DNA from: Octopus vulgaris
Taxonomy: Eukaryota
Direction: 5' to 3'
Assembly: GCA_951406725.2 (NCBI GenBank)
Contig: OX597827.1
Coordinates: 80,600,001-80,664,000 of the forward strand
Length of the DNA stretch: 64,000 bases
Of the stretch, positions 1,615 through 57,307 are shown piece by piece (the stretch's first letter is position 1; each line of letters opens with the position of its first letter). The position numbers were made by a program, and so were the translations under genes. The notes under the pieces are model-generated. The model worked only from the letters and a program-made list of their open reading frames with translations. It was not told where the DNA came from and did no database searches.

Positions 1615-1850
1615 CTTTTTAATAATTATATCATTGGTTATTCAGTGAGAAAGAGAAAGCTGTATTGTTGTAGAAAGATCCATTGTAAGTGCTGCTGTAA
1701 TGGTGTGACAATGGCTGTTATGGTGATGGAGTAGTGTAGCACGTCAGGCAGAGAGTCTGCTGCTAGGAGAGGGTTGCATGTGTCACTGAAGTTGTATGTT
1801 TTGTGGGAGTACATCCACCTAATGATACTTTGTGTATGTATTTATCCTTA
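1615..1850 (-). other. Non-coding leader exon (copy 0) of a protocadherin gene lying left of the window
   Basis: About 200-nt core near-identical to 5 other copies; ends in AAAAAG|GTAAGT donor (1609-1614 intronic); 5' end approximate. Confidence 0.75.
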
Positions 1851-2000
1851 AAGATGTTTACTATTTACAAATATATGGATATATATCTAAATAGCTACAA
1901 TATTGTGTAGTTAAACACGACAAAATTATTTGGCTTAATAACATGAGTAATGTAAATGCTGTTCTTAGTAAGTGATTTCTTTCTAGGTTTTACTGAGGAT

Positions 2001-2035
2001 CTGATTGGTTGAATGACCTAAACAGAAGGACCAAT
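2001..2035 (-). promoter_or_regulatory. Inverted CCAAT-box pair (NF-Y-like) upstream of leader copy 0
   Basis: CTGATTGGTT...CCAAT; minus strand reads AACCAATCAG; same position in all six units. Confidence 0.65.
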
Positions 2036-2237
2036 GAAGATATTCTCTTTAATATTGATTTCTCTTGGCATAACACACGGGACTTTTATAAAGAAGAAAG
2101 TGAGATTGTATGATGTTCATCCTTACTAGCATTAATAATTACTTTTATATAGAACTATATTACTCTTAGAATTCAATGTTAAAATTCTCATTATATTTAT
2201 ATTTATTTATGCTTCAATAAGAATGTTTATATATTCT

Positions 2238-2518: not shown

Positions 2519-2742
2519 AAAATAATAATAATATTAATAATAATAATAATTTTTTTCTGATTTAGGCAGAAGGCAAACAATTTTAATGGAAGCAAGGAAG
2601 TCAGTCAATACCATTAACCCCAGCACTTGATTAGTACTTTATTTTATCGACAACGAAAACTTGAAGCAATGTTTTCTGAAGTCCTAATGATTCTGCTGTC
2701 CATCAGACAAAATGTATGGTATTATATTTATGCCACTTTATA

Positions 2743-2885
2743 CTCAGAGTTCAAAACTGGCTGAGGACAATTCTGGCTTTTATCCTCCTGGGGCTGATAA
2801 AATAAAGTCTCAGCAAAGTATTGGAGATGATATATTTTATCAAATTTACCTCTCCAAAGTTTTGGCTTTGGGCCTTCCTAGAAAC
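2743..2885 (+). mobile_element. Degenerate SINE family A fragment
   Basis: CAGAGTTCAAAA...CTTTTATCCT...GATAAAATAAAGT similar to the 2238-2518 element. Confidence 0.5.
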
Positions 2886-3345
2886 AAGTATTATTATCTT
2901 TATCATTAACCCCAAAAGAATGAGACAGTGAAGTATTAAGATAACTTTCAAATGGAATATCTCACTGAAACACCATTTAAGTAAGGAGATCAATTAAATT
3001 CACTATATTTAATTTCTAGGAATTGCAGCTGTGCCTATATTTAAATTGATGATTTGTATTATTTAGTCAAAACTAAAAAGAATAGATTATAGCGCTTAAT
3101 TAAACTAAAGTAGTCTATAAAATATGATTATAGTACAAAAACTGATATGGACTGAAAGGAAGCTATTTACTTACAGAACTCTAGACATCATAATCAAGTC
3201 ATTGCCCATTTATTGAGAACCCTGTTTTTACATAGACATACACAGCTGTATATTACAGAATATAAACAATGTATATATGAGACGTTTTATGTACAGATAT
3301 TATATATACATCAGGAAAGGTAGTTATGTCACTTCAATAGTAAAA

Positions 3346-3419
3346 TTAGACATGTTTCACTGGTGTTTCCTCGCTAGAATCTCTTATTGATGTATCTTTG
3401 TTTTTATATATATTTTGAT
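3346..3419 (-). CDS. Pcdh: G1 terminal coding exon (DQNIYKNKDTSIRDSSEETPVKHV*)
   Basis: TGCAG acceptor, phase-1 join to the previous exon, in-frame 3-nt deletion relative to paralogs, TAA at 3346-3348. Confidence 0.8.
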
Positions 3420-3543
3420 CTGCAATTTAGATATAAAATAGATATTAACATACATACATAAATATATAAAAATAATATGAGGGAATATTATTCCAAACTA
3501 TTCTTTCATTATTGAATTGATAAAAGGTGGTTTCTTTGTAATT

Positions 3544-3595
<52 letters not shown>

Positions 3596-3716
3596 AAGGC
3601 AAAATCAGAAAAAGTTGATAAAAATTTACATGACAATAAAAATTATATCTACAAGATCTTATGCAATATGTACATTCCAGATGAAAATGTAGAATACAAC
3701 CAATGCAGCTATTAAC

Positions 3717-3870
3717 CTGAAACTCCTGGTATTTCTTCATAATGTTTCAGGTCTCCTTGTCTACCACTTCTCTTGGATGACATTGTATCTGATGTATAGT
3801 TACAAACCATAGTAGCATTATCTTCCACAGCATCATCACCTGATGTCACCACAACAGGTTGACAGTATTT
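3717..3870 (-). CDS. Pcdh: G1 cytoplasmic exon (KYCQP...HYEEIPGVS)
   Basis: CAACAG acceptor, G|GTTAAT donor, 154 nt, conserved in all copies. Confidence 0.85.
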
Positions 3871-4041
3871 CTGTTGACAAACAAACGAAAAGAAATGTGA
3901 GAAGACACCAAACAATGGAAGTTACAATCAACATGGAAAGAGAACAATTTAATATTGGAATGTATTATTGAAGTTAAAACATATTCAAAGAGATTTCATT
4001 GTTCAATTTTACAGAGAGAAAAATGTAATGTTTCCACTTAC

Positions 4042-6417
4042 TGGGGTAGGTTTTGGTAAAGTTCTCGACTGAACTGAAGATTCATATTTGTTCTGTAGCT
4101 GACCTTCTGCATAACATTCACTCTCTTGGATCTCTCAGAATAGATATTCCGCTTCACCATCTCTTCTGCATTCCTCGACATAGCAACAGAAGTGTTAGTC
4201 TGGTACAACAATTGTTTCATCTCTGCTCTACCTTGGTAGGCTGTATTCTTTGTGGCAGCAGCTGTGTTATCTCTGTGTTTAATACATTTCATAATACACA
4301 GCGTTATAGAAACAACAATAGCCACTGATATTATTACTGCTGATGATACAATGATAATAACCCATGTCATATGGACCCGGCCTGAAGATTGTAAAGGTCC
4401 ACTCTTCGACATTGGTGATGTCTCGTTACTAACAGCCAATACCAAAGTGACACTAGTTGTTGACGACTGAACTGGACTACCACTGTCCTTCACAACAAAC
4501 ACCAGCTCATAATTTCCAGCATCATTTAGATAAACTTGTCTGGAGAAGGATAAAGCACCACTGTGTGAGTTCATACTAAACAACTGTTTATCATTTCCTT
4601 GTATGATTGCATATCTGAGGAAAGCATTGTTTCCACTGTCCCCATCAGACGCTCTCAAAACTGTGATGTCACTCTTACTTCTGCGGATGGTACTGCACAT
4701 TTAGCGTGTAAGGGTCACTACTAGGATATGTAAAATACGGAGCATTGTCATTTTGATCTAGAATCTCAACAACAACATTCGCTGTGTCATTCAGAGATGG
4801 GCTTCCATTATCTTTGACAAAAACCTCAAACTTATACACATCTTGTTTCTCTCTGTCCAATGACATGGTCGCTGAAATGAAGCCATAACTGGTGATGAGA
4901 AATGGGAGATTGGATTTTTCTTTACGCAGCAGAGAATATGTGAGTTGTCCAGCAGATCCAAGATCAGGGTCAGTGGCATTGACAAAACCAATAGGGAAGT
5001 CTTTATCTTTGTTTTCGTAGGTGAGGAATTGGAATGTATCTTTGGTAAACTGTGGTTGTACATCGTTGATGTCAGTCACTTGGATAGAGAGGCTTTTAAC
5101 ACTTTTGAGAGGAGGTAATCCTTTATCTTGACAGGAGACAGGAATGTTATAGTGTCCTTGTGTTTCTCTGTCCACTGGTTTGTTTAGAATGATTTTATAT
5201 TCTTTAGATCCCATTGACTGTAGTTTGAATGTATCATGTTTGATATCACAGCTGACCTCTCCATTTTGTCCCACATCATTGTCAGTGACCATCACATAAG
5301 CAAGGAAACTACCAACTTTGATGTTTTCAGAAATGGTACCTGTGTTGTCACTGATTGCATTAACATAATCAATATCAATAGATGGAGGATTGTTGTGTTG
5401 GTTGATGACATTTACCAAAACGGTTGCAATAGAACTGATTGGGGGATTGCCTCCATCTCTGGCTTCTATAAATAATTCAAAAGTATTTTTTTCATTTAAA
5501 CTAGAAATTCTAGATAAAAATATTTTTCCAGTTTTTTCATCCAATTCGAAATATTTCTTTGCCAAATCAGAAGTTTTGGGGCTGAAATGGAAAGTAATTT
5601 TACTGTTGGATCCAATATCTTTGTCTGTCACTGACAAAGTAAGAATTGGCTTTGTCTTGTCGTGTGTGGTTCTAATTGAAATATTATAAAGGGGTTTTGA
5701 AAATACAGGTGGATTATCATTCTCATCTTCAACAACAATCTCAACATTTAACACACTCTGTTTAGATGGAGAACCTCCATCTTTAGCAATAACTTCTAAA
5801 TTGTATTTTTCTTTTAACTCTCTGTCTAATTTTTCTTTTAAAACAATATTTAACGAGGAAATACCATCAGCTCTTTTAGAAACTGACAAAGAAAATGAGT
5901 CATCAGATTTTTTAAGTTTATATTCAATGAAAGAATTTTGATAACTAACATCTTTGTCTATGGCATTTGGGATTGACTTTTTCATTCCTCTCCCATCACC
6001 TTCCCCAAAATGTAGTGTGATTTGTTTTTTAGGAAACTCTGGTTCGTGGTCATTAATATCTTCTATTACTATTTTGACTTTTAATATTTTTGTGAATGTT
6101 GCCACTTTCTTTATAATAATTTTTATAGTTCTGGAACATTCTTTGTTGAATGTGCAGAGATCTTCTGCATCCAGTGTCTGAGCAGTGTACAGTTTACCTG
6201 TTTTGGTGATGTTAAATAACTGTGCCACCTTTCGTTTGAATTGACTGAATGTTATCAAATGTTGGTCAGATGGTTTAACATTGTCTAAAAGTTTAGAATC
6301 GGCAGCAATGTCTGCTACATATGTTCCTGGACTTCTCTCTTCTTCCACATGGTAGGTAAGGTCTATGGTCAGGACACAGTGGACCAGTGACAATACAATA
6401 GACAATGATAGTAACAT
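4042..6417 (-). CDS. Pcdh: Protocadherin G1 main exon (signal peptide, EC1-6, TM); frameshifts near 4680 (+1) and 4120 (+2)
   Basis: DINDHEP/DENDNPP/DRE/DxD cadherin motifs, EC1 C-x5-C, TM WVIIIVSSAV; CCA|GTAAGT donor; acceptor upstream of 6461. Confidence 0.9.
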
Positions 6418-7529
6418 TTTGTCGCTGTGGTAAAAGAAATCAGATGTTTTGAGGATTGAACCTAAAATTAGAACACATTTACTTGATTAGATATTCTTAT
6501 AAATTAACCACAGTTTAAAATATGGAATTATTATTTTACATATGAAGATTCAAGTACAAATTAATAATTTTCTAGTCAATGTTTCTACAAAACCGTAAAA
6601 CAAAAACCACTACATACCCCATCACAATTTGAATAACCAAAGGTAGGATTTGAGCATTTCTATAGCAGAGATAATAGGACTAATAAATCCATCACAATGT
6701 AGTCCAATATGATCTAATTTTTGCAGTGAGTTGTAATCTATAATAGTCCACAATATCTAAAGTTTAGTAACTTCTGTTTATTGTTAGCTTTATGCCTCTG
6801 ACTGAATGATCCACTTCTATTTTTTAAACATCATTGTCAAAATATTCTGTCAGATTGTTTGCATCCCTCTGTTGTACCATGAATATAATATCAAACTGTT
6901 ACCTACTTTCTTCATAATCACCATAAGCATTGAAGTAGTCATAATCCAAAGATTCCTACAAATATTATTTCCTGATTATATTTACCTTCAGCTTCAAGGC
7001 AGGCTGAACAAAATTCTTAGTGGTATTTCTTCTGGTTTTAAATTCTGAGTTCAAATGCCACCAAAGTCAACTTTACCTTTCGTCCTTTCAGGTCAATCAC
7101 ATAAGTACCCCTTCCTCCAGAATTTCAGCCTTTGTGACCGTAGTTGAAAGGCTGTCTACATTCAGCTTCCTGGCTCTTACACTCCAGAAGTCTCTCGCTA
7201 TACACATTACATTCTCTCCATACTGGAGATCTTTCTATCGTTCGTATTGATTTGCTTTGCTTTTAGATTCGTTTTTAAAGGAGAAATAGAAATCAGGAAG
7301 CAGAAAGAGTTTTTGCTTACTTTCATGTCCATAGTTGTTGTTTAGGTTTTCCTCCAAGATCCACTGTCAACTATGTAGACTACTGAGTAAAAATGCTCTT
7401 CAACCCTCACTCTTATTATCAATCATATATTTGAGAGTAGAACTAATTTCTTGTCGGGTTTAACATACCATCTGCCACTCAGGTACCACTAGCAAAGTCA
7501 CCTCTGTGCAAGCATTGAAGCCAAGACTA

Positions 7530-7800
7530 CTAAAGGATAACTGACTCACTTTACATTAATTTACATTTGATGGATATTTATCCTCATCTTGTTTGCTGTT
7601 AACACAACGTTTTGGCTGATATACCCTCCAGCCTTCATCAGGTGTGTTGGGGAAATTTCAAACCTGGGTTCTCATTCCTAAGGTAATTTTTGATACTATT
7701 ATTATTATTATTACAATTATTATTCAGGTCACTACCTGGAATCGAACTCGGAATCTTGGGGTTAGTAGCCCGCACTCTTAACCACTATGCCTATGCCTGT
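7530..7800 (-). mobile_element. tRNA-headed SINE (family B) with hammerhead-like 3' part
   Basis: Head GGCATAGTGGTTAAGAG...GAGTTCGATTCC; second copy at 42172-42430. Confidence 0.7.
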
Positions 7801-8065
7801 GGGCAATTATAGAGTGAATTTTGGAGCTTATAAATTTAATATTTTCCTATCCTTCCTTAATAACAGTTCCCATATGTATTAAGTCACATTAGTTACAGAA
7901 ACTCTGAAAGTCAATAAATGAGGACAAAAAACTACATTGAATCAAAGATTAATGCCTCCCCAGGGGATTGATGTCTCCCGGGGGAAGGGGGGCATGTCCC
8001 CCACCTCAAGAAAATAATGTTATTATGCTTTTAATCAAACTTCTTTTGATTATTCAGACTTCTCT

Positions 8066-8258
8066 CGTGCTAGTGCCATGTAAAAAAGCACCCAGTCCAC
8101 ACTCTGTAAAGTGGTTGGTGTTAGGAAGGACATCCAGCCACAGATACCATGCCAAAACAGACAATAGAACCTGATGTGGTCCCAGGCCTTGCCAGCTCCT
8201 GTCAAACCGTCCAACCCATACCAACACAGAAAACATATGTAGATGATGATGATGATGG
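8066..8258 (+). mobile_element. (GAT)n-tailed RTE-related repeat, truncated copy
   Basis: AAAAAGCACCC...TTAGGAAGGACATCCAGC...CCAACCCAT...GATGATGAT; about a dozen copies in the window. Confidence 0.75.
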
Positions 8259-10999
8259 TGGTTCTCTATTAAGTCCATTCATCACAGACCTTTAACAATA
8301 CTTCTCAGGTATAAAGACAATTCTCAAAAAATATCTTAAGACCATGTTCTTAAAAGCTAATTCTAATATGATCAGAAGAGTTTGGGGTTTCTCTATAAAC
8401 ATATTTATTTATGAAAAATTTAAATCACGCCAGTTGCTTCTTCAAACAATAATAATAATGTGATTGTTGTAGACAGTGTTCAGGTGCACTTTTCTCATGA
8501 GTAATGATGCTTGAAAATGCCAGTTATTCATGGTCAAATCACTAGCACTCAGTCTAAATTAGAGTCACCATGTTCATTTTCCATGCTGGGATAGGTTGGA
8601 CGATTCAATAGGAACCAAGAAACCAGAGGACTGCATTGAGCCCCAATTTTGGCTTTGGCATGGGTTTCTGTAGCTGAATGCTCTTCCTAATACTAACCAC
8701 TTTGCAAAGTGTACTGAGTGCTTTTTCAGACCATTTAACAATTATAACAAAATCTAATGTTTTCAGAAAAGATCATTGAGAGATAAAAGGTAGAACTAAC
8801 CAAGATCAAGTGTGAGCTAACATATCTAGTGCAGTAAACCACAAAGAATTTGATTTAAATTGAAATCAAACCTGAAATAAAATGTGAGTCTTTAGCACTG
8901 ATGAAAATTTTATTTTTCAAGAAAGGCTAAGGAGCAACTCTGAACTCTAAACTGATTAAAACTAACATGGAAACATGCAATGGGGAGTTAGATACAGCAA
9001 CTATTCTGGATGTGTTTTGGTCTAATTAAAACCACCTCAACAAAGTAGTCAAACACACACCACATAATAGAATGACTTTGAGAAATTAAAATTATTTGTG
9101 AATGCTATTCACTAATCATTTGTAATTTAAACTGATGTTAGTGGAACATTTCCCAACAGTGCTTATGCATCAAGAGCATACAGTTACGTTTGGGCTAATA
9201 TACAGAGTAATCCCAAAACAACTTTTAACAATTTGAAATAAAATTCATAATGAATAGGTAAGTCATCATCATTTGTCAGCAACCTTACAAAAATGTCTTA
9301 CAAAAAAAAAAAAAGACTCATTCACAATAGCAGGTCTCTATTCAAATTGCAACCAATTTATATTTCCAAGTTTTTCCCTTGCATTCCTTGAAAAAAAAAA
9401 AGGAAATTATCATTTACTTGACTTTCCTTTTCTTCAGTCAAGTTTAAGTCAAACAGATTAAGAATTCTTTCTGGTTCACTCAACGAAGTATGTTAGCTTA
9501 TAATTAATTTCACATTTTACATGTAGAGAACAGCCTTGAGAGATTTTCTGCTCCAGGTAATTTAAGACATTTTTGCAACAGACGTTTTAAAGATAAATAT
9601 TTGTAACATTCAACGTGAGAAGTACAAAAGTTAATCAATGATAAAAGACTCTCCGATTAGAAGACTGACAAGAGAATGAGTGACAAGGATTGGTTAATAA
9701 GAAGACTGAAAAGATTGGGAAAAACAAAGACTAAAGTGTAACAATCTTAACTGAAATTCAGAGAAACCACAAAATTTGAAGACTAGATATGATTAAGAGT
9801 AGCAATTTATGTAATTCATACCAAAATAAATAAGGACATACAACATTACGAAACACATCTGACAATGAAAGGATATTGACAACGCTTGTGAATGGTTTTT
9901 AATTTGAATTTTAAACCTGATTAATATCTAAAATACTCATCAACTTAAATTTCTGCAAAAGATTAGCTTTAAAAATTAACAAAATCTAACAAAAGTTTGT
10001 AATTAAATATTGGAAAGATTAGCATAAAATACAATAAAAATTTTTGACAGTTTTATAAATAAATTATGAAAGGAAGTTGGAAGACATGTTGAAAAACAGA
10101 TTAATGTATAATTAAATCTTCCAAGTATGCTTTGTAAGCTAACAAATAACATATATATATATGAATTGTATTGTTTATATTCTGTCAACTTCAGACAGAA
10201 CTCCCTTCTCTTTTTATTGTCTCATATAAGCCTCCACCATATCTCTTCACCCAATAACAGCCACAAATCCTAATATGGCTGCCATTATTCCAACCAAAGT
10301 CTTTAACACACTGTCAGCTCATTACAGATAATAATCTGCACAGTAAGAGCAGACTGGGACACACTGCACCACACTGCTTATACACAGCAATTCCCTAAAC
10401 TTCTCAAATATACTATTACTATGTAGGTACAATATTACACCCTTCTTACACTAACACAAACATATATTGCAGTACTACAATTGAGGGTACTTCTGCATAA
10501 TCAACTGACTTGCTAGAAATGCCAGCCAGACTCTCTCAACTTGCACCTTACAGTCTTAAAATGGAAACAGAAAACATGTAGATTACAGTCCTAGATATAC
10601 TCAATGGTAGAATGACCAAACCTGAAATATCTTTAATTATAGCTCAGCTAAATCAGTTTAACCTAAGATTTAACAACAACGTTATAAACTGCTATCTCTT
10701 GTTACTAATTAATATATTTAGCAAGTATTACGCATGCATAAATAATATTGTTTTCAATAGAATAAACTATTAAACATTTTAATCAATTACATCTACATGT
10801 TAAACAAGATGAACAAGATTAATGTAAAATATGAGTGTATTATTGTTCAATCTCTTTGTTCTCTTGTTAATAATAAATATGTTACAATAATATCTGAAAC
10901 ATTATTCAATGAGATTTATTATATCAAATGAGATTGTTTCAAGTTCAGTGAGGTATTATAAATTAAAATGAGATAGTGAAAGATTAAATAGAAACTTAC

Positions 11000-11240
11000 C
11001 TTTTTAATAATTATATCATTGGTTATTCAGTGAGAAAGAGAAAGATGTATTGTTGTAGAAAGATCCATTGTAAGTGCTGCTGTAATGGTGTGACAATGGC
11101 TGTTATGGTGATGGAGTAGTGTAGCACGTCAGGCAGAGAGTCTGCTGCTAGGAGAGGGTTGCATGTGTCACTGAAGTTGTATGTTTTGTGGGAGTACGTC
11201 CATCTGATAATATTCTGTGTATGTATTTATCCTCAAAGAT
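11000..11240 (-). other. Non-coding leader exon of G1
   Basis: Conserved block; donor GTAAGT 10994-10999; matching TTTTAG|G acceptor at 6461, 44 nt before the ATG. Confidence 0.75.
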
Positions 11241-11408
11241 GATGCTTGCTTACTGTTATCAATGACTATTTACATATATCTATCTATGTAGACACATATT
11301 TTAAAAGCAGTAATATTCAAGATTTATACATAATTGTTTGGTTTAAGAACATCAGTAATGTGAATGCATATCTTTGTTAGTGATTTCTTTCTGTATTTTA
11401 GTGAGAAT

Positions 11409-11442
11409 CTGATTGGCTGAATGACCTAAACAGAAGACCAAT
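11409..11442 (-). promoter_or_regulatory. CCAAT-box pair, putative G1 promoter
   Basis: CTGATTGGCT...ACCAAT, conserved position. Confidence 0.65.
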
Positions 11443-12840
11443 GACAATCTTCTCTTTTACATTGATTTTATTAGACAAATAGTTTAGATTTGTACATGGA
11501 AAAAAACTGTGTGATGTTCATTCTTTTTCATAAACTTTATTGGCCATTATAACTATCTTTATGTTGAATTACCTTGCTCCTAAATTCAATTCTAGTGTTC
11601 TCATGGAAATTTATATTTCAATGAGAATGTTTATATTTTGTCACAAGAATATATGACTTTATGATTTACCATTTCTGAAATACTGCTTACACTTAGAATT
11701 AAAGGTATAATGTAGCTATAATTACAAATACTTCTAAAAGTGTCATAATGTTAAACAAGATGGTTATCTCTAGATAACCACACATAATAAAACAAATATT
11801 ATAAATGATGATGATGATGATGATGATAATAATGATTTCTCATTTTCATACAGGCCATCAATTTTGAGAGGTATGGTTTTGTGAACACCATTGATGCGAA
11901 TGTTTGATCCTGAGAGGAACTGAATCCAGTATGTAAAGAGCCAGGGGATGCTAAAAATTGGGGTTTTTTTCCCCAATGCTCTAAAGATTCTGCCAGCTTG
12001 CCACCTTCCATAATAATGGTTTCTGATTTAGGTACAACAATTTTAAGAAGATGGAGATGATATCTGATATCATCAACCCCAGTAACTGGCTAGCATTGAT
12101 GGGATTTCACTTCAGAATGTAAAAAACTAAAAGGAAAATTGCAAGTCATTTTTCCCCATTACCTTAATTCCGCCATGCATCGGAATAAAAAGCTTTGCAT
12201 TATTCTTTATGGCTCATTCAGAGTTCAAAATCTGAAGAGGTCAATTCTGCCTTTCATCCTTCTGGGACTGATAAAATATAATACCAGCAGAATATTTGAG
12301 ATGATGTATTTGACCTAACTTGCCCTACCTGACTTTTGGCTTTGTGCTTTCTTAGAAATAATTATTATTATTTCATTGACTTCAATAGTAATGAAAGAGA
12401 ATGAAGTATTTAGGCAGCTTGCAACTAGAATATCTCACTAAAGTGACTATTTTTATGGTCTGCAAACAAAGTTTCAAGTTCATTAGGTTCACGATAATTA
12501 TCTTCAGAGAATTACAATCATATCTCAATATCTGGATTCATAAACTGCATAATTTAGTAAAAAAACAACAAAAAACAATAGTTTATAGAGCTTATTGTAA
12601 AACTTTTTGAAAAACAAATATACGATGATTATTGTACAGAAACTGATAGAGAGTGAAAGAAAGCTATTAATTCATAGAACTTAAACATTTAGTTATCTGA
12701 AGCATTGTTCATTACTTGACACCCTCGTCTTTACATCTATACTGCTATATTGTACAGAAAATATACAATGTGTATGTGAGATTGTGTATGTACAAATATT
12801 ATACATTCATACAATTAGCTGTGTTACTTCAGTAGTACAA

Positions 12841-23424: not shown

Positions 23425-23668
23425 CTCTTTAATAATTATATCATTGGTTATTCAGTGAGAAAGAGAAAGATGTATTGTTGTAGAAAGATCCATTGTAAGT
23501 GCTGCTGTAATGGTGTGACAATGGCTGTTATGGTGATGGAGTAGTGTAGCACGTCAGGCAGAGAGTCTGCTGCTAGGAGAGGGTTGCATGTGTCACTGAA
23601 GTTGTATGTTTTGTGGGAGTACGTCCACCTAATAATAATATTCTGTATGTATTTATCCTCCAAGATGT
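23425..23668 (-). other. Non-coding leader exon of G2
   Basis: Conserved block; donor GTAAGT 23419-23424. Confidence 0.75.
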
Positions 23669-23807
23669 TTGTTCATTATTTACATATTTATAGATATATA
23701 TTAAAATAGTCTTTAGTTAAACGTAACAAAATCGTTTCATTTAATAACATCAATAATGAAAAATGCTTATCTTTGTTAGCAATTTCTGACTGCATGTAAG
23801 TGAGAAT

Positions 23808-23840
23808 CTGATTGGCTGAAGAACCGAAACAAAAGACCAT
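23808..23840 (-). promoter_or_regulatory. CCAAT box, putative G2 promoter (second box degenerate)
   Basis: CTGATTGGCT...ACCAT. Confidence 0.6.
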
Positions 23841-24067
23841 GTTAAGATGTTAACTTTAATATCGACTGGTGATGCACATGTCACATATTCATGTAGAAAA
23901 AAGGGAAAGGACCGTGTGAAACGACTGCTGTGTAGAAGACTATCTTAGCTCTGATAATGTATACTGCTAAACACTATATTAATTGAACAATGTGCATGCC
24001 CTTATGTTTATGCTTACGTTTGTACTGAACACTCTATATCTTATATTTACTTGGGGATAATTCGTAA

Positions 24068-30860: not shown

Positions 30861-33280
30861 AATTTCTTTATTCACCATAAGGTTGAGAAAAAGAGGGTAC
30901 AATACGGGGACAGACAAAACAAACTTTGGGTCAGGGTATCGAATGAGACGAAACGTATGAATAAACAAACAATTAAAATATATACAATTAAATGAGAATG
31001 AGTGATTAACAAAAAATGAAGCGGAGGACGCGGTTGACCCCACAAACCAACATACTCACACTGAAGACTTTGCTTTCTCCTTTTTTTACATTCTCGATTA
31101 AACAGGTTCTTTCACTCGCAACATATTTGCTATATATTTCCATCTTTTACGAAACACATTTTGCGACAGGCATTTCTTCTCCAGCCTTATTTTCGTTTCA
31201 TGTGGAAAACGAAAAAGTTGATTAGCTCGAGACTGGAGATAAACACTCCTGTTGAAATTCCTTTCACTGTTTGAAGTAATCTTTTCCTTCACAGGGAGCA
31301 TAGACAGTGACCAGCCTGAACACTTTACCACTGCTGTGCGTCACATCCAAAACGACCAACCTGCCTTCTGGATCTATAAAGACAGTTCTAATCTCTAAAT
31401 CCAGGTTTTTTCTGACCAGCACTGCCACTCCTCTGCCCCCTCCTGGTCGACAGGGAGAAACGTATTTCTCGTAGCCGTTTAGAAGGAGCGAAAAAGCCTG
31501 CAGCCCACTCAGTCTGGATTCGGTAATTACAACTACATCCAAACGATGCGACCCAAGGTTGTTAAGGAGGTAGCCTTGCTTCCAATACGACCCCAGGCCG
31601 CAAATATTTAAACAACCGAGTTTAAATGAGAATGTGAAAAATTAGTCGAATGTTTAAAACTTACTGTTTTAACAGGAGAGAGGGTGTAGTTTCACCCTCC
31701 TCTTTTCTGTCTGTGAGTGTTGTGGTTTGCGAAGTCATTTTTTTCGCAAATTGCTTGTACAGATGGCTCGAAAAGTTCAACTGTAACGGGCCGAAATCCT
31801 CCACAAAAGATTTTTTTAGTTCAAAATAGTTGTCTTTGGTATAAAATTCGACATTTTCAAGAATAGTATTATTTACATCTGTTGCGATATATTTTTTCGC
31901 CGATTTCATTAAAACAATTTTGTCTCTTAATAGTTTATTATTTTGTTTATCGCCGTGAAGGTGTTTCTCTTTTTTATATTAGGCGATTGTGGAGGGGGGG
32001 GGTGTGCTTGTGGGTGTGCTTGTAAAAGCATGGGTGTTTGTAGGTGTGTGTGTGTGTGTGTGTGCTTTTTCCAGTGTGTGTGTTTTTTTGGCTACGTGTG
32101 TGTTTGTGACTGTATTTGTGGGTGTGGGTGTGCTTGTCTGTCTCGGAGCATAGTCCTGTGTATCCAAAGAGGGTGGGTTTTTCCGTTTCCGTCTTCTTTT
32201 TGAAGGTTCCACGTTGACCCACTCCTGGATGTTGTTGTTTTCTCCCGCTGTCGGCTGTACTTCGGCAATTGAGGTGTGCGACGTGGCTGCTATTTCTAGT
32301 GGTGTGGTCGTTGTCTTCGGCGGCGTCCTTGCCTCTTCTGCTGCGTTTTCTTTGGCTGTCTTCTTCTTACAGCTCGACCTTATGTAAGGGAACTGGGCAA
32401 TTTTTCTGAGTCTGAGGGATTTGCTTGGATGACAAGCTCTAAATCTCGTCCAAACCAGTTCATGTGGTGGTATCTCTTAGATTAAAGAATAAAAATTTCT
32501 TCTTCTTTGCTATGAGAATAGCAGCTATCACCCAGGCCATATCTATTCCGGGTGGTATATCCGCGACTGTGATTTTTGAAGTCGGCAGGAGAACCACTTC
32601 TTCCAACTTCAATGTCATTGTTGAATGTTCCCTAGCTTTTTCTTCGCTGGGGAAACGCACCTCTACAGTGCCGAAGCGACAACCCTTTGTTATATAACTT
32701 GTTTGTTGCCATATCGGCCTCAAGAATTTTCCTATGGCTTCCCTCGGCACGAAGTCAATTTTCCTATTTTTCACATGATATGTTTTGTATATCACCGTCT
32801 TTCTCTCCGTCGTGTAAATTAATTCACTGGCAGGGAGCAACTTCAAATTATCACCTTTTTTTAGTAAACCTTGGTATTTCTTCAAATCTTCCTTGTTAAT
32901 TACTATATATTCGCAGGGGCGAGTTGCTGCACTCGCAAAATGTATTTTTGACTTTTCCTCTTGTGCCGTAGCCTCGCCAGACATCTTGTCGTCTGCTTTT
33001 GTAACGCGCGCGTGAGACGCCTCTTTACTTTCACCTTCCTCCTCCCACATTTTCGCCTTCATCGCCTTCAAACAAATTTTCAAAGTTTTTCTCCGACTCG
33101 GAATAAATTGGTGGCAAATTCATGCTTTTTGCCGCTTCAAGGGGGAAAGAATGGAAAAAACTCTGCTGCAACAGCAGAAAAGAAGTGGTTTCGACGACCA
33201 AAACAGCAAATTTTCACAATTTTCAGCACAAAAACAATCTTTCAGTGCAGAGCAAAGAATAACACGACCGATCAAAAGAA
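30861..33280 (-). mobile_element. Tx1/L1-clade LINE with both ends present and RT internally deleted
   Basis: ORF1-like 32460-33083 plus partial knuckle HIRSSC; APE endonuclease (CLNICGL, DVVVITESR, GRGVAVL, EGRLVVLDV, VYAP) fused to ORF2 C-terminus (FRKRW); AATAAA at the 3' end; TC-rich flanks. Confidence 0.8.
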
Positions 33281-36820: not shown

Positions 36821-37061
36821 CTTTTTGATAATTATATCATTGGTTATTCAGTGAGAAAGAGAAAGATGTATTGTTGTAGAAAGATCCATTGTAAGTGCTG
36901 CTGTAATGGTGTGACAATGGCTGTTATGGTGATGGAGTAGTGTAGCACGTCAGGCAGAGAGTCTGCTGCTAGGAGAGGGTTGCATGTGTCACTGAAGTTG
37001 TATGTTTGTAGGAATATACCCATCTAATAATAATATTCTGCATGTATTCATCCTTAAAGAT
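36821..37061 (-). other. Non-coding leader exon of G3
   Basis: Conserved block; donor GTAAGT 36815-36820. Confidence 0.75.
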
Positions 37062-37233
37062 AATGTTTGTTGACTACTTCCAGTGATTGTTTGCATATAT
37101 ATATACAGAGAGAGAGATTTATATAGCTACAATATTCTATAGTTTAAACAGACCATAATCTTTTGGCTTAATAACATCAATAATGTGAATCCTGCTCTTT
37201 GTTAGTGATTTTGTTTTATGTTTTAGTAAGAAT

Positions 37234-37257
37234 CTGATTGGATGAGGAAAGACCAAT
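37234..37257 (-). promoter_or_regulatory. CCAAT-box pair, putative G3 promoter (shortened spacer)
   Basis: CTGATTGGATGAGGAAAGACCAAT. Confidence 0.62.
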
Positions 37258-37819
37258 GAGGACATTAAATATTTGTGATGCAAATGTCATATATTTATAG
37301 GGGAAAAAAAAAGCTGATGAAGCAATCATACCTTTCCCCAAACTATTAAAGCCATGTGCTGTATTAGTTACAGAGTTTATTTTTAATATTACTCTAGAAA
37401 TGAAAGGAAACTTCATTTCACTGATATAAAAAAAATCTCCATTGAATATTTTTACCCTATTTTTAGTAGACTTACACAAAACGTTCAAAGGTGATACTAA
37501 ACATAGTAAAACTTATAAAATGTCCCCAATCATTATACTCCACAACAAATATTAAATTTTAAGTATTATGGAGAGTAATTATTTATTTTTATAGGCATTT
37601 ATTTATTGTAATGTATAAAAAATATTTTTAAAACTTAACTAATTTAAACATCTCTAGGGTTACTTAGAATGCATTGCTTAATTATAAGACTGTCTTGTAT
37701 AAATTTATATTGCTACATTAATTAATGTGTATATGGATATGTGCATATTCCTGTGTGTACTTAATAGTTTATATCATGTTTACTTGGAGGAAAATATGCT
37801 CATCACTTCAAATATATAA

Positions 37820-48731: not shown

Positions 48732-48970
48732 CTTTTTAATAATTATATCATTGGTTATTCAGTGAGAAAGAGAAAGATGTATTGTTGTAGAAAGATCCAT
48801 TGTAAGTGCTGCTGTAATGGTGTGACAATGGCTGTTATGGTGATGGAGTAGTGTAGCACGTCAGGCAGAGAGTCTGCTGCTAGGAGAGGGTTGCATGTGT
48901 CACTGAAGTTGTATGTTTTGTGGGAGTACGTCCATCTAATAATATTCTGTATGTATTTACCCTTAAAGAT
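48732..48970 (-). other. Non-coding leader exon of G4
   Basis: Conserved block; donor GTAAGT 48726-48731. Confidence 0.75.
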
Positions 48971-48981
48971 GATAATTACTA

Positions 48982-49024
<43 letters not shown>

Positions 49025-49131
49025 CTATGAAATTCTAGAGTTTAACCTACCACAATTGTTTAATTTACTAACATCAGTAATGTGAATGCTTAGCTTTCTC
49101 AGAGATATATTTCTATATTTTAGTGACAATT

Positions 49132-49164
49132 TGATTGGTTGAATGACCTTAACAGAAGACCAAT
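49132..49164 (-). promoter_or_regulatory. CCAAT-box pair, putative G4 promoter
   Basis: TGATTGGTT...ACCAAT. Confidence 0.65.
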
Positions 49165-49827
49165 GGCAATCTTCTCTTTAATATTGATTTGATTAGGCAT
49201 AACTGCTTGAACTTATACAAAGAAGAAAGTGAAATTCTTTTTCTTTAGAATTACTAGCATTGATTGTATTTATTCAGAATTATATTACTCCTAAAATTCA
49301 TGAATTTAAATGCTTGTTTAAATTTATATTCATTTACATTTTAATGAAAATATTTGTAGACTGTCACAAGAATGTTGTGATTTCTCATTGATATTGTCTA
49401 AAATAGAAATAAAATTAAATAATTGAGCTCTAATTACAAATATTTGTGAAATATTAGTCTCAAATTAAGAAGTAACAACTCTGAGCTAAATTTAGAATTC
49501 AGTATTATTTAGCCTACAAAAAGGAGAGATATTTAGCGTTCAAAACAAGCACTATGTGTAGAAATAATCTGTTTGAATGTACACAAAAAATAAACATGAC
49601 ATAATTAGATCAACAAAGAAAACTATAGCTTTAAACTTCATCTTTTCTTATCAGAACTATTACTTATTTATTAACACTTCTATCTTCACATATATACACT
49701 GTTGTAATGACGGTAAATGTTGATATTGCATATGTATTGAAGAAGTACTATCTTAAATTACATATATTATCATATATTATAATATATTATAATATATTAT
49801 AATAGTTATGTTATTTCAATAACATAA

Positions 49828-56573: not shown

Positions 56574-56812
56574 CTTTTTAATAATTATATCATTGGTTAT
56601 TCAGTGAGAAAGAGAAAGATGTATTGTTGTAGAAAGATCCATTGTAAGTGCTGCTGTAATGGTGTGACAATGGCTGTTATGGTGATGGAGTAGTGTAGCA
56701 CGTCAGGCAGAGAGTCTGCTGCTAGGAGAGGGTTGCATGTGTCACTGAAGTTGTATGTTTTGTGGGAGTACGTCCACCTGATAATATCCTGTATGTATTT
56801 AGCCTCAAAGAT
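56574..56812 (-). other. Non-coding leader exon of G5
   Basis: Conserved block; donor GTAAGT 56568-56573. Confidence 0.75.
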
Positions 56813-56948
56813 GATGTTTACTATTTTCAGACATACATATAAATGCCAATAAGTATAATATTTTATAATTGAACTGTTTGATTGAATAATGTTAGGAATG
56901 TAAATGCTAATCTTTGTCAGTGATTTCTTTCTATGGTTTAGTGAGAAT

Positions 56949-56981
56949 CTGATTGGTTGAATGACTTACCAGACGACCAAT
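56949..56981 (-). promoter_or_regulatory. CCAAT-box pair, putative G5 promoter
   Basis: CTGATTGGTT...ACCAAT. Confidence 0.65.
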
Positions 56982-57307
56982 GAAGATACTCTGTTTAATA
57001 TTTATTCCCCCACAGGAGAAATATGCTTGTCTTAAAGGAAGAAAGTGAGATTGTGTGACTTTCATTCTTTCTCATGATAATTACTGGTATTAACAATTAT
57101 GTTCATGCTGAATTATATGACATCTAAACTTCATGAGATAAAATGCTCAATTCATTTTATATTTATCTATTTTTCAATAAGAATATTTCTGTATCACCAG
57201 AATGAACTGAGAAAGTAATTTTTCTGTAATTTAGTTTATGTTAAAATTAAACAAGAAAATGAGAATATAATTACCGATAACTGTAAAGAAAATACATAAT
57301 GTTATAT

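Follow-up and report, generated by a model that had tools for sequence, protein, structure and literature searches.

Among the described systems, the clustered protocadherins of vertebrates are the closest to the locus considered here, being tandem, same-strand paralogs which carry a conserved non-coding element at a fixed position and whose EC2-3 repeats are spared by gene conversion (PMC7811963, PMC4978886). This element, the CSE, is characterized by a CGCT box and by CTCF/cohesin (PMC7811963, PMC4978886). In octopuses, the protocadherins are located on a single chromosome (PMC9068888, PMC9795677), and that of O. bimaculoides has been reported to carry subclusters of 34 and 27 genes (PMC9068888). 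The regulation of the cephalopod protocadherin clusters has been called still enigmatic (PMC10658181).

Here we have analysed a stretch of 64,000 nucleotides of Octopus vulgaris DNA (contig OX597827.1, positions 80,600,001 to 80,664,000), hereafter the window, in which an earlier note had described a non-coding block repeated once per protocadherin gene and had read it as a set of near-identical, interchangeable promoters. We find that the repeated block contains an exon, one per gene, which is spliced to protocadherin acceptors, and that an element of ~60 nt within it is conserved among diverged sub-families. Beyond the earlier note, two sister arrays with their own homogenised leaders and the ~60-nt element common to the sub-arrays are new.

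The genes of array A and their cassettes

The window contains six minus-strand protocadherin genes, the intact ones of which code for proteins of 806 aa that contain Cadherin_2 and cadherin domains, the Pfam assignment having been made on sister genes of the gene with its ATG at 6417 (the 6417 gene). They are part of array A, a set of 27 minus-strand protocadherin genes of octopus type, in which, as is characteristic of cephalopod arrays, Cadherin_2, the cadherin repeats and the TM segment are encoded in one large exon and the genes follow each other in tandem, head to tail. A search with the first cadherin repeat gave 150 scored matches (of 219 candidates), every one on contig C14, which fits the single octopus protocadherin chromosome of PMC9068888 and PMC9795677. 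The features of the 6417 gene, of its cassette and of the sister cassettes in the window are given below, where the contigs referred to are those of four runs (X1, X7, X11 and X12), presumed to be RNA, which were compared with window 2560-11900.

3340..3419, minus strand: exon 4, terminal coding part (DQNIYK...PVKHV); lower end approximate; joint 3382-3717 in contigs of X12, one of the four runs
3717..3870, minus strand: exon 3 (coding, cytoplasmic), after a 171-nt intron; joint 3870-4042 in contigs of all four runs
4042..6461, minus strand: main exon of the 6417 gene, with 44-nt 5'UTR, ATG at 6417, cadherin repeats, TM segment and start of the cytoplasmic tail
6462..10999, minus strand: putative intron 1 of this copy
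10994..10999, minus strand: splice donor GTAAGT, seen in the sequence and joined in contigs
11000..11185, minus strand: near-invariant part of the non-coding leader exon, TCAGT at 11170-11174; spliced in contigs
11065..11131, minus strand: element common to the sub-arrays, with TGACGT, CCATCA, the GCCATTGTCACAC core at 11085-11100 and CAGCAG
11186..11407, minus strand: moderately conserved proximal zone (14-43% pairwise difference), predicted to hold the probable start region; contigs reach to at least 11264
11408..11443, minus strand: inverted CCAAT pair (ATTGG ... CCAATCA), array-specific; CCAAT in 27/27 and ATTGG in 25/27 copies
1615..2036, minus strand: sister cassette, donor 1615; the ATG of its gene lies 574 nt left of the window
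23425..23841, minus strand: sister cassette of the gene with ATG 15800; ATTGG changed to ATGG
36821..37258, minus strand: sister cassette of the gene with ATG 27535
48732..49165, minus strand: sister cassette of the gene with ATG 41911
56574..56982, minus strand: sister cassette of the gene with ATG 53152

The main exon stops at an internal donor ahead of an apparent stop codon, and is followed by the 171-nt intron, exon 3 and exon 4; exons 3 and 4 are separate for every gene, in agreement with PMC9068888. The first introns of array A are about 2.1-10 kb long. The note's placing of an AG acceptor 41-56 nt before the ATG is correct for the six genes of the window; over the array, a search confined to 35-62 nt before the ATG gives one at 40-60 nt in all 27 genes.

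Two frame-breaking extra bases of the 6417 gene (window 4679 and 4121) are missing from the contigs of all four runs and may be assembly errors, though these contigs pool paralogs; the genes with ATG 15800 and 27535 are likewise frame-broken. At window 4923 and 4939, one X1 contig has C where T is found in 26/26 and 25/26 genomic copies, respectively (A-to-G on the coding strand), for which A-to-I editing or allelic variation could account. A 200-aa minus-strand ORF unrelated to cadherins, probably a transposon relic, is found at 32460-33062, in a GC-richer stretch of the 9.3-kb intron that belongs to the 27535 gene. A truncated, internally deleted gene fragment is located at the top of array A (G000:C14:80682041-80682595).

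All six cassette copies reported for the window are present on the minus strand, each ending in AG|GTAAGT. Genome-wide, the search returned at least 27 full and two partial copies, all on the minus strand of C14 at 80.396-80.677 Mb, and the 27 cassettes alternate strictly, one to one, with the 27 genes, so that the rule of one cassette per gene extends to the whole array. With 29 of 29 matches (a lower bound) within 281 kb on one strand, the block was found in this cluster only, and its origin as a dispersed transposable element was rejected. The pairwise difference among the 27 copies averages 0.7% (maximum 2.4%) in the 181 nt before the donor vs 31-32% in either flank, which bears out the description of a core with few mismatches and decaying flanks; similarly, 163 of 186 columns are invariant in the core vs 19 of 315 upstream. 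The near-identical core of ~200 nt is thus real, but near-identity is limited to a tract of ~185 nt, which begins about 10 nt before TCAGT and excludes the promoter-like zone. In this CCAAT-bearing zone the copies differ by 14-43% per 25-nt window, and the notion of near-identical promoters is therefore not borne out: what is identical is the exon-proximal 185 nt.

All 27 copies have the CCAAT box, at positions -375 to -420 relative to the donor. This puts it about 170-215 nt ahead of the 204-nt core, so its conserved position is confirmed, while the distance is slightly above the 160-200 nt claimed. CCAATCA is the longest invariant run upstream, a length reached by 0 of 10,000 column shuffles, and with the inverted ATTGG it forms a pair which we take, by consensus, to be of NF-Y type. 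The core holds TCAGT (25/27) and TGACGTG (27/27), as had been noticed; here and below, Inr (for TCAGT), NF-Y, AP-1 and CREB are labels that we assign by motif consensus. The copies with donors near 80595326 and 80489380 of G000:C14, 106 kb apart, share a 9-nt deletion which removes TCAGT as well as a 1-nt deletion, and thereby provide natural variants for the Inr-like site. A 42-nt piece of the 5' end of the core also occurs inside intron 1 of the gene 80449947 (80450699-80450740).

Splicing of the leader exon

In contigs of three of the four runs presumed to be RNA (one contig in X1, three in X11, one in X12, none in X7), window position 6422 is joined to 10998. In one X11 contig, the two sides of the joint are separated by 30 letters, 29 of which agree with the 5'UTR of the paralog 80449947 read from its acceptor onwards; a core donor has therefore been joined to a protocadherin acceptor. 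As the core and the ATG are about 2.2 kb apart at the nearest in array A, this joined form is absent from the genomic DNA of the array. The core is a spliced non-coding 5' leader exon, one per gene. The expected splicing from the donor of the block to protocadherin acceptors is hence seen, while the particular junction 11000 to 6461 is not among the contigs of the four runs, whose junction contigs bear the 5'UTRs of other paralogs; the leaders being identical, the source copy of a junction is hidden.

Two other assignments were tried for the core and rejected. A coding exon is contradicted by its single frame open for ~60 codons, which has no ATG and is shifted in the copy at 36821, and by the exon 4 that the upstream gene has of its own; and the conserved YAG at the start of the core, considered as an acceptor, is absent in the copy 80404408 and takes part in no joint among those listed. 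Tandem near-identical copies with a strong donor at the end would also suit spliced-leader RNA genes that trans-splice onto many mRNAs. However, the copies stand one to one with protocadherin acceptors and differ by sub-array, the sole joint from the donor among the joints listed leads to a protocadherin exon, and all spliced leaders known to us are far shorter than an exon of at least 185 nt, which makes this origin extremely improbable.

On the 5' side of TCAGT the contigs continue for 90 nt or more, as far as 11264 in X7 and ~180 nt beyond 11244 in one X1 contig, so TCAGT need not be the initiator. There is also contig cover in all four runs at window 11418-11793, just upstream of the CCAAT pair, which suggests that the 3'UTR of the upstream gene abuts the next candidate promoter. 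With cover in both places, read-through from the upstream gene is possible. Transcription might then continue from the upstream genes, with the block doubling as a 3' end or as a re-splicing donor, and any leader might be joined to any downstream main exon. The stop in exon 4 was found in 26/26 units at 248-2877 nt before the next CCAAT box (480-1420 nt in most), so the cassette comes after the terminal coding exon of the upstream gene. This short distance would accommodate read-through, as would the absence of AATAAA between stop and CCAAT in 9/26 units, an ATTAAA at -7 to -9 from the donor in 17/27 copies, the cover upstream of CCAAT and the identical leaders that hide the source copy of a junction; read-through fusions have indeed been reported among PCDH models (PMC9712504). 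On the other hand, a diverged version of the leader, with the element, accompanies a gene 13 kb downstream, although the nearest upstream protocadherin piece is about 40 kb away, and nothing but a broken gene fragment lies above the top cassette, where a scan of 77 kb gave no additional element. Fused read-through mRNAs would, moreover, be targets of nonsense-mediated decay. We consider such a read-through unit improbable, and the block is no relic of the upstream gene's 3'UTR either, since it is spliced to main exons and its diverged version occurs at that distance from any upstream protocadherin piece.

Cassette words were also sought in 24 runs, 20 of which contain 0.86 or more of 21 such words (8 studies, five organism labels, none recorded as RNA). 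This presence across organisms was rejected as a sign of deep constraint, because organisms B and C have contigs whose identity to the window is ~99.5% in the coding parts as well.

Homogenised tracts and an element common to the sub-arrays

The leader is not the only uniform tract of array A, as EC1 and the stretch from EC4 through exon 3, including intron 2, are uniform too (windows 0.000-0.045), whereas higher values were found in the promoter zone (0.14-0.43), in the signal peptide (0.12) and in EC2-3 (0.10-0.33). The difference at four-fold sites is 0.025 in EC1, 0.318 in EC2-3 and 0.034 in EC4-CP (26 of the 27 genes, the last gene being left out). Since the silent sites of EC1 and of the EC4-cytoplasmic part have been homogenised as well, most of the near-identity within the array is apparently explained by gene conversion. 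Cores are identical in 79 of 351 pairs, 78 of which differ by more than 15% upstream, and the core and upstream distances are uncorrelated (rho -0.07). The core is nevertheless four to five times more uniform than the silent sites of the converted tracts (0.7% vs 2.5-3.4%), which suggests selection on top of conversion. For short reads, this uniformity means that those from leaders, EC1 and EC4-exon 3 are not assignable to one gene.

Three further arrays on C14 have their own non-coding tract ending in G|GTAAG. These putative leaders, which lie between the genes, are uniform (0.00-0.02) in array B (79.20-79.40 Mb, 24 donors) and in array C (80.005-80.235 Mb, 22 donors), and differ by 0.05-0.07 in array D (81.36-81.46 Mb, plus strand, 9 donors). 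Diversity is confined to EC2-3 across arrays A, B and C (in C it also includes the first 300 nt), and the EC4-cytoplasmic part is homogenised down to the silent sites. Vertebrate clusters have the same pattern of gene conversion, with EC2-3 spared (PMC4978886), and the EC2-3 diversity of the octopus genes parallels the specificity domains of vertebrates. In leaders of array B, e.g. G000:C14:79296893, an ATG stands 6 nt before the donor; after splicing, it would begin a short frame which, for some copies at least, terminates in a stop overlapping the main ATG. Another contig (L093, G000:C10:63176700-63177300) carries 512 nt that are a 99.6% copy of an array C leader with the start of its intron, with no protocadherin in the 10 kb examined.

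The leaders of arrays A, B and C have ~55-70 nt in common. Local alignment scores are 61 for A-C and 43 for A-B, vs shuffle maxima of 37 and 29, and 34 for B-C, matched by 1 of 300 shuffles; no other local match was found among these leaders. The element was not found in array D by local alignment, nor in array D or L096 with a profile built from five copies. It is ~60 nt long, with 85 nt between it and the donor of the spliced exon, and usually consists of a bZIP-type TGAC site, a TGTCACAC core and CAGCAG. In an alignment of 11 copies, TGACTCA mostly stands where array A has TGACGT, followed by CCATCA, TGTCA(C/A)AC and CAGCAG; the TGTCA(C/A)AC core and the TGAC site are kept in most of these copies from diverged lineages, the bZIP site being missing or displaced in array B and in one edge copy. 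CCAAT pairs were not seen in the diverged leaders.

A 16-nt pattern derived from A, B and C has 80 matches in the genome (control 3), most of them in-sample, and 76 are on C14 at 79.19-81.98 Mb; the match at 81975126 was not backed by the profile and was rejected as an element. In 337,200 bases, the five-copy profile gave one same-strand match upstream of each of 7/7 further minus-strand genes, with scores of 19-38 bits (best of three shuffles 12.5), and each of these elements has a donor-like site downstream (GTAAG in five, GTGAG in one and GTATT in one). Further pattern and DNA-query searches yielded four more copies. For each of the resulting 11 out-of-sample matches, and for one edge copy, a protocadherin N-terminus follows downstream at a distance of 3.1-13.5 kb. 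At least 88 copies are thus present in the 79.2-80.7 Mb block (29 in A, 25 in B, 23 in C and 11 elsewhere), on the strand of the genes and upstream of them where checked, the genome-wide extent having been assessed by strict patterns and DNA queries only. The same block holds 96 N-termini among the first-cadherin-repeat matches listed, and their pairing with the element was checked for some. As one copy is ~40 kb from the nearest upstream protocadherin piece, the element travels with the 5' ends of the genes.

Between arrays, 36-48 of 62-63 columns of the element are identical (58-76%), vs 50-56% of four-fold sites in A, B and C, so its identity appears only moderately above the background for an element chosen after the fact. 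One could therefore regard the leader as an ordinary paralogous first exon of no special function, homogenised by conversion (e.g. because open promoters form a recombination hot spot), and ascribe the likeness across arrays to common descent or to rare cross-array conversion. The homogenised silent sites and 171-nt intron are in line with that account. It is opposed by the greater uniformity of the core relative to those silent sites, and by the persistence of TGTCA(C/A)AC and TGAC in most of the 11 copies while the A, B and C leaders have no other local match; on balance, we think it rather unlikely.

The location of the element in a spliced exon, with contigs reaching 5' of it, would also allow it to act in RNA, through upstream ORFs, RNA-binding proteins or transport, and to impose the same translational control on the mRNAs of all paralogs. 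The leader 11000..11185 has three upstream ATGs, with frames of 11, 13 and 2 codons, and ACAATG recurs near the donors of the other arrays. However, the positions and frames of the upstream ATGs vary between arrays, and TGACTCA/TGACGT resembles a DNA site. A structured non-coding RNA is not indicated by the fold (z = -1.28), by consensus pairs over the 11 copies, or by Rfam, whose three matches are far below gathering scores. Action in RNA is an unlikely reading, though one with a better chance than a leader of no function. The element is a candidate octopus counterpart of the vertebrate CSE and a candidate common control switch.

Regulation of the array in comparison with known systems

We favour, with a probability of roughly two in three, the reading in which the cassette is promoter plus first exon, conversion evens out the leaders within an array, and the shared element provides a common activating input. 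Each protocadherin gene would then have its cassette as its 5' end, with a promoter zone and, next to it, a non-coding first exon, cis-spliced to the main exon over an intron of 2-10 kb. Every cassette would initiate transcription separately, the start probably falling somewhere from the CCAAT pair to TCAGT. Inside an array, the uniformity of the 185-nt tract would be due to non-allelic gene conversion, which would act likewise on EC1 and on EC4-exon 3; selection on the element that the tract contains would seed and sharpen it. The element is predicted to bind common activators, namely a bZIP factor, presumably of AP-1/CREB type as judged from its site, and a TGTCACAC-binding factor. About 90 paralogs would thus get one common input and be co-regulated, several per neuron, and the divergent upstream zone (14-43%) might tune each gene.

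The earlier note went further, and proposed interchangeable promoters of equal strength, with stochastic or equal expression; on such a model, they would compete for shared enhancers, and each neuron would draw its combination of paralogs by chance, in the manner of the vertebrate clusters. Each gene does have one leader, with an element in common, and diversity is limited to EC2-3, as in vertebrates (PMC4978886); furthermore, neurons express on average about 21 of 172 PCDH genes, the average per cell being 19 (PMC9712504), and vertebrate-like processes are expected in cephalopods by PMC10658181. Yet some PCDHs are ubiquitous and others cell-type enriched, and genomic location makes no clear difference (PMC9712504). 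The upstream zones differ by 14-43%, and the core identity, comparable to what conversion has left in coding tracts, lends no support to equal strength. Among the 27 copies, moreover, a CGCT box is found in two and a CTCF-like pattern (up to 2 mismatches to the consensus) in one, neither in a conserved position, which agrees with the note's own remark that no vertebrate-type CSE is recognisable. We hold equal competition to be doubtful, and random choice among the paralogs to be a possible but added step. Equally tentative is the wider idea that octopuses have independently evolved a protocadherin barcode, with ~90 tandem genes, EC2-3 diversity, a shared non-CTCF element, equal competition, random combinations and an equality kept by conversion.

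The leaders and the element are not described in the parts considered of PMC9068888, PMC6339937, PMC7811963, PMC9712504, PMC9795677, PMC4978886, PMC10658181, PMC10084454 and PMC7339444. A literature search, with supplements mostly outside its scope, gave no account of them; the leader exon may already be visible in supplements or genome annotations. The sub-arrays of PMC9068888 are alike in consisting of multi-exonic, closely related, same-orientation genes, with 27 genes in the present one, and conversion was already suggested there; leader exons, promoters and a shared element are not mentioned in the sections concerned. The Xenopus pcdh-gamma2 genes 15-36 (PMC4978886) are similar, by description only, in having an uncharacterised, sub-array-wide promoter motif other than the CSE, but this motif is a vertebrate one and near the ATG. 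Chelicerate Dscam, with alternative promoter choice (PMC6339937), is also an invertebrate array of recognition genes, with one promoter per unit, as would be the case here. It belongs, however, to an unrelated protein family. Its units, moreover, share 3' exons.

As regards the vertebrate clusters, the CSE lies ~200 bp upstream of the ATG (PMC7811963, PMC4978886), whereas the octopus element is in a separate non-coding exon 2-13 kb away; the probable 5' ends of these genes would therefore escape a search confined to the 2 kb ahead of the start codon. The vertebrate alpha and gamma clusters share constant 3' exons, whereas each octopus gene has 3' exons of its own, and the octopus expansion is independent of the vertebrate one. 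Further features of the vertebrate system are stochastic, monoallelic expression per neuron, loops to distal enhancers, antisense lncRNA and methylation. With neither CGCT/CTCF-like site nor constant exons, and with its element kilobases from the ATG, the octopus array is not a member of the vertebrate system, yet it may work like the CSE promoters, and one ~60-nt candidate element for most genes of a 1.5-Mb block makes convergent promoter choice a testable question.
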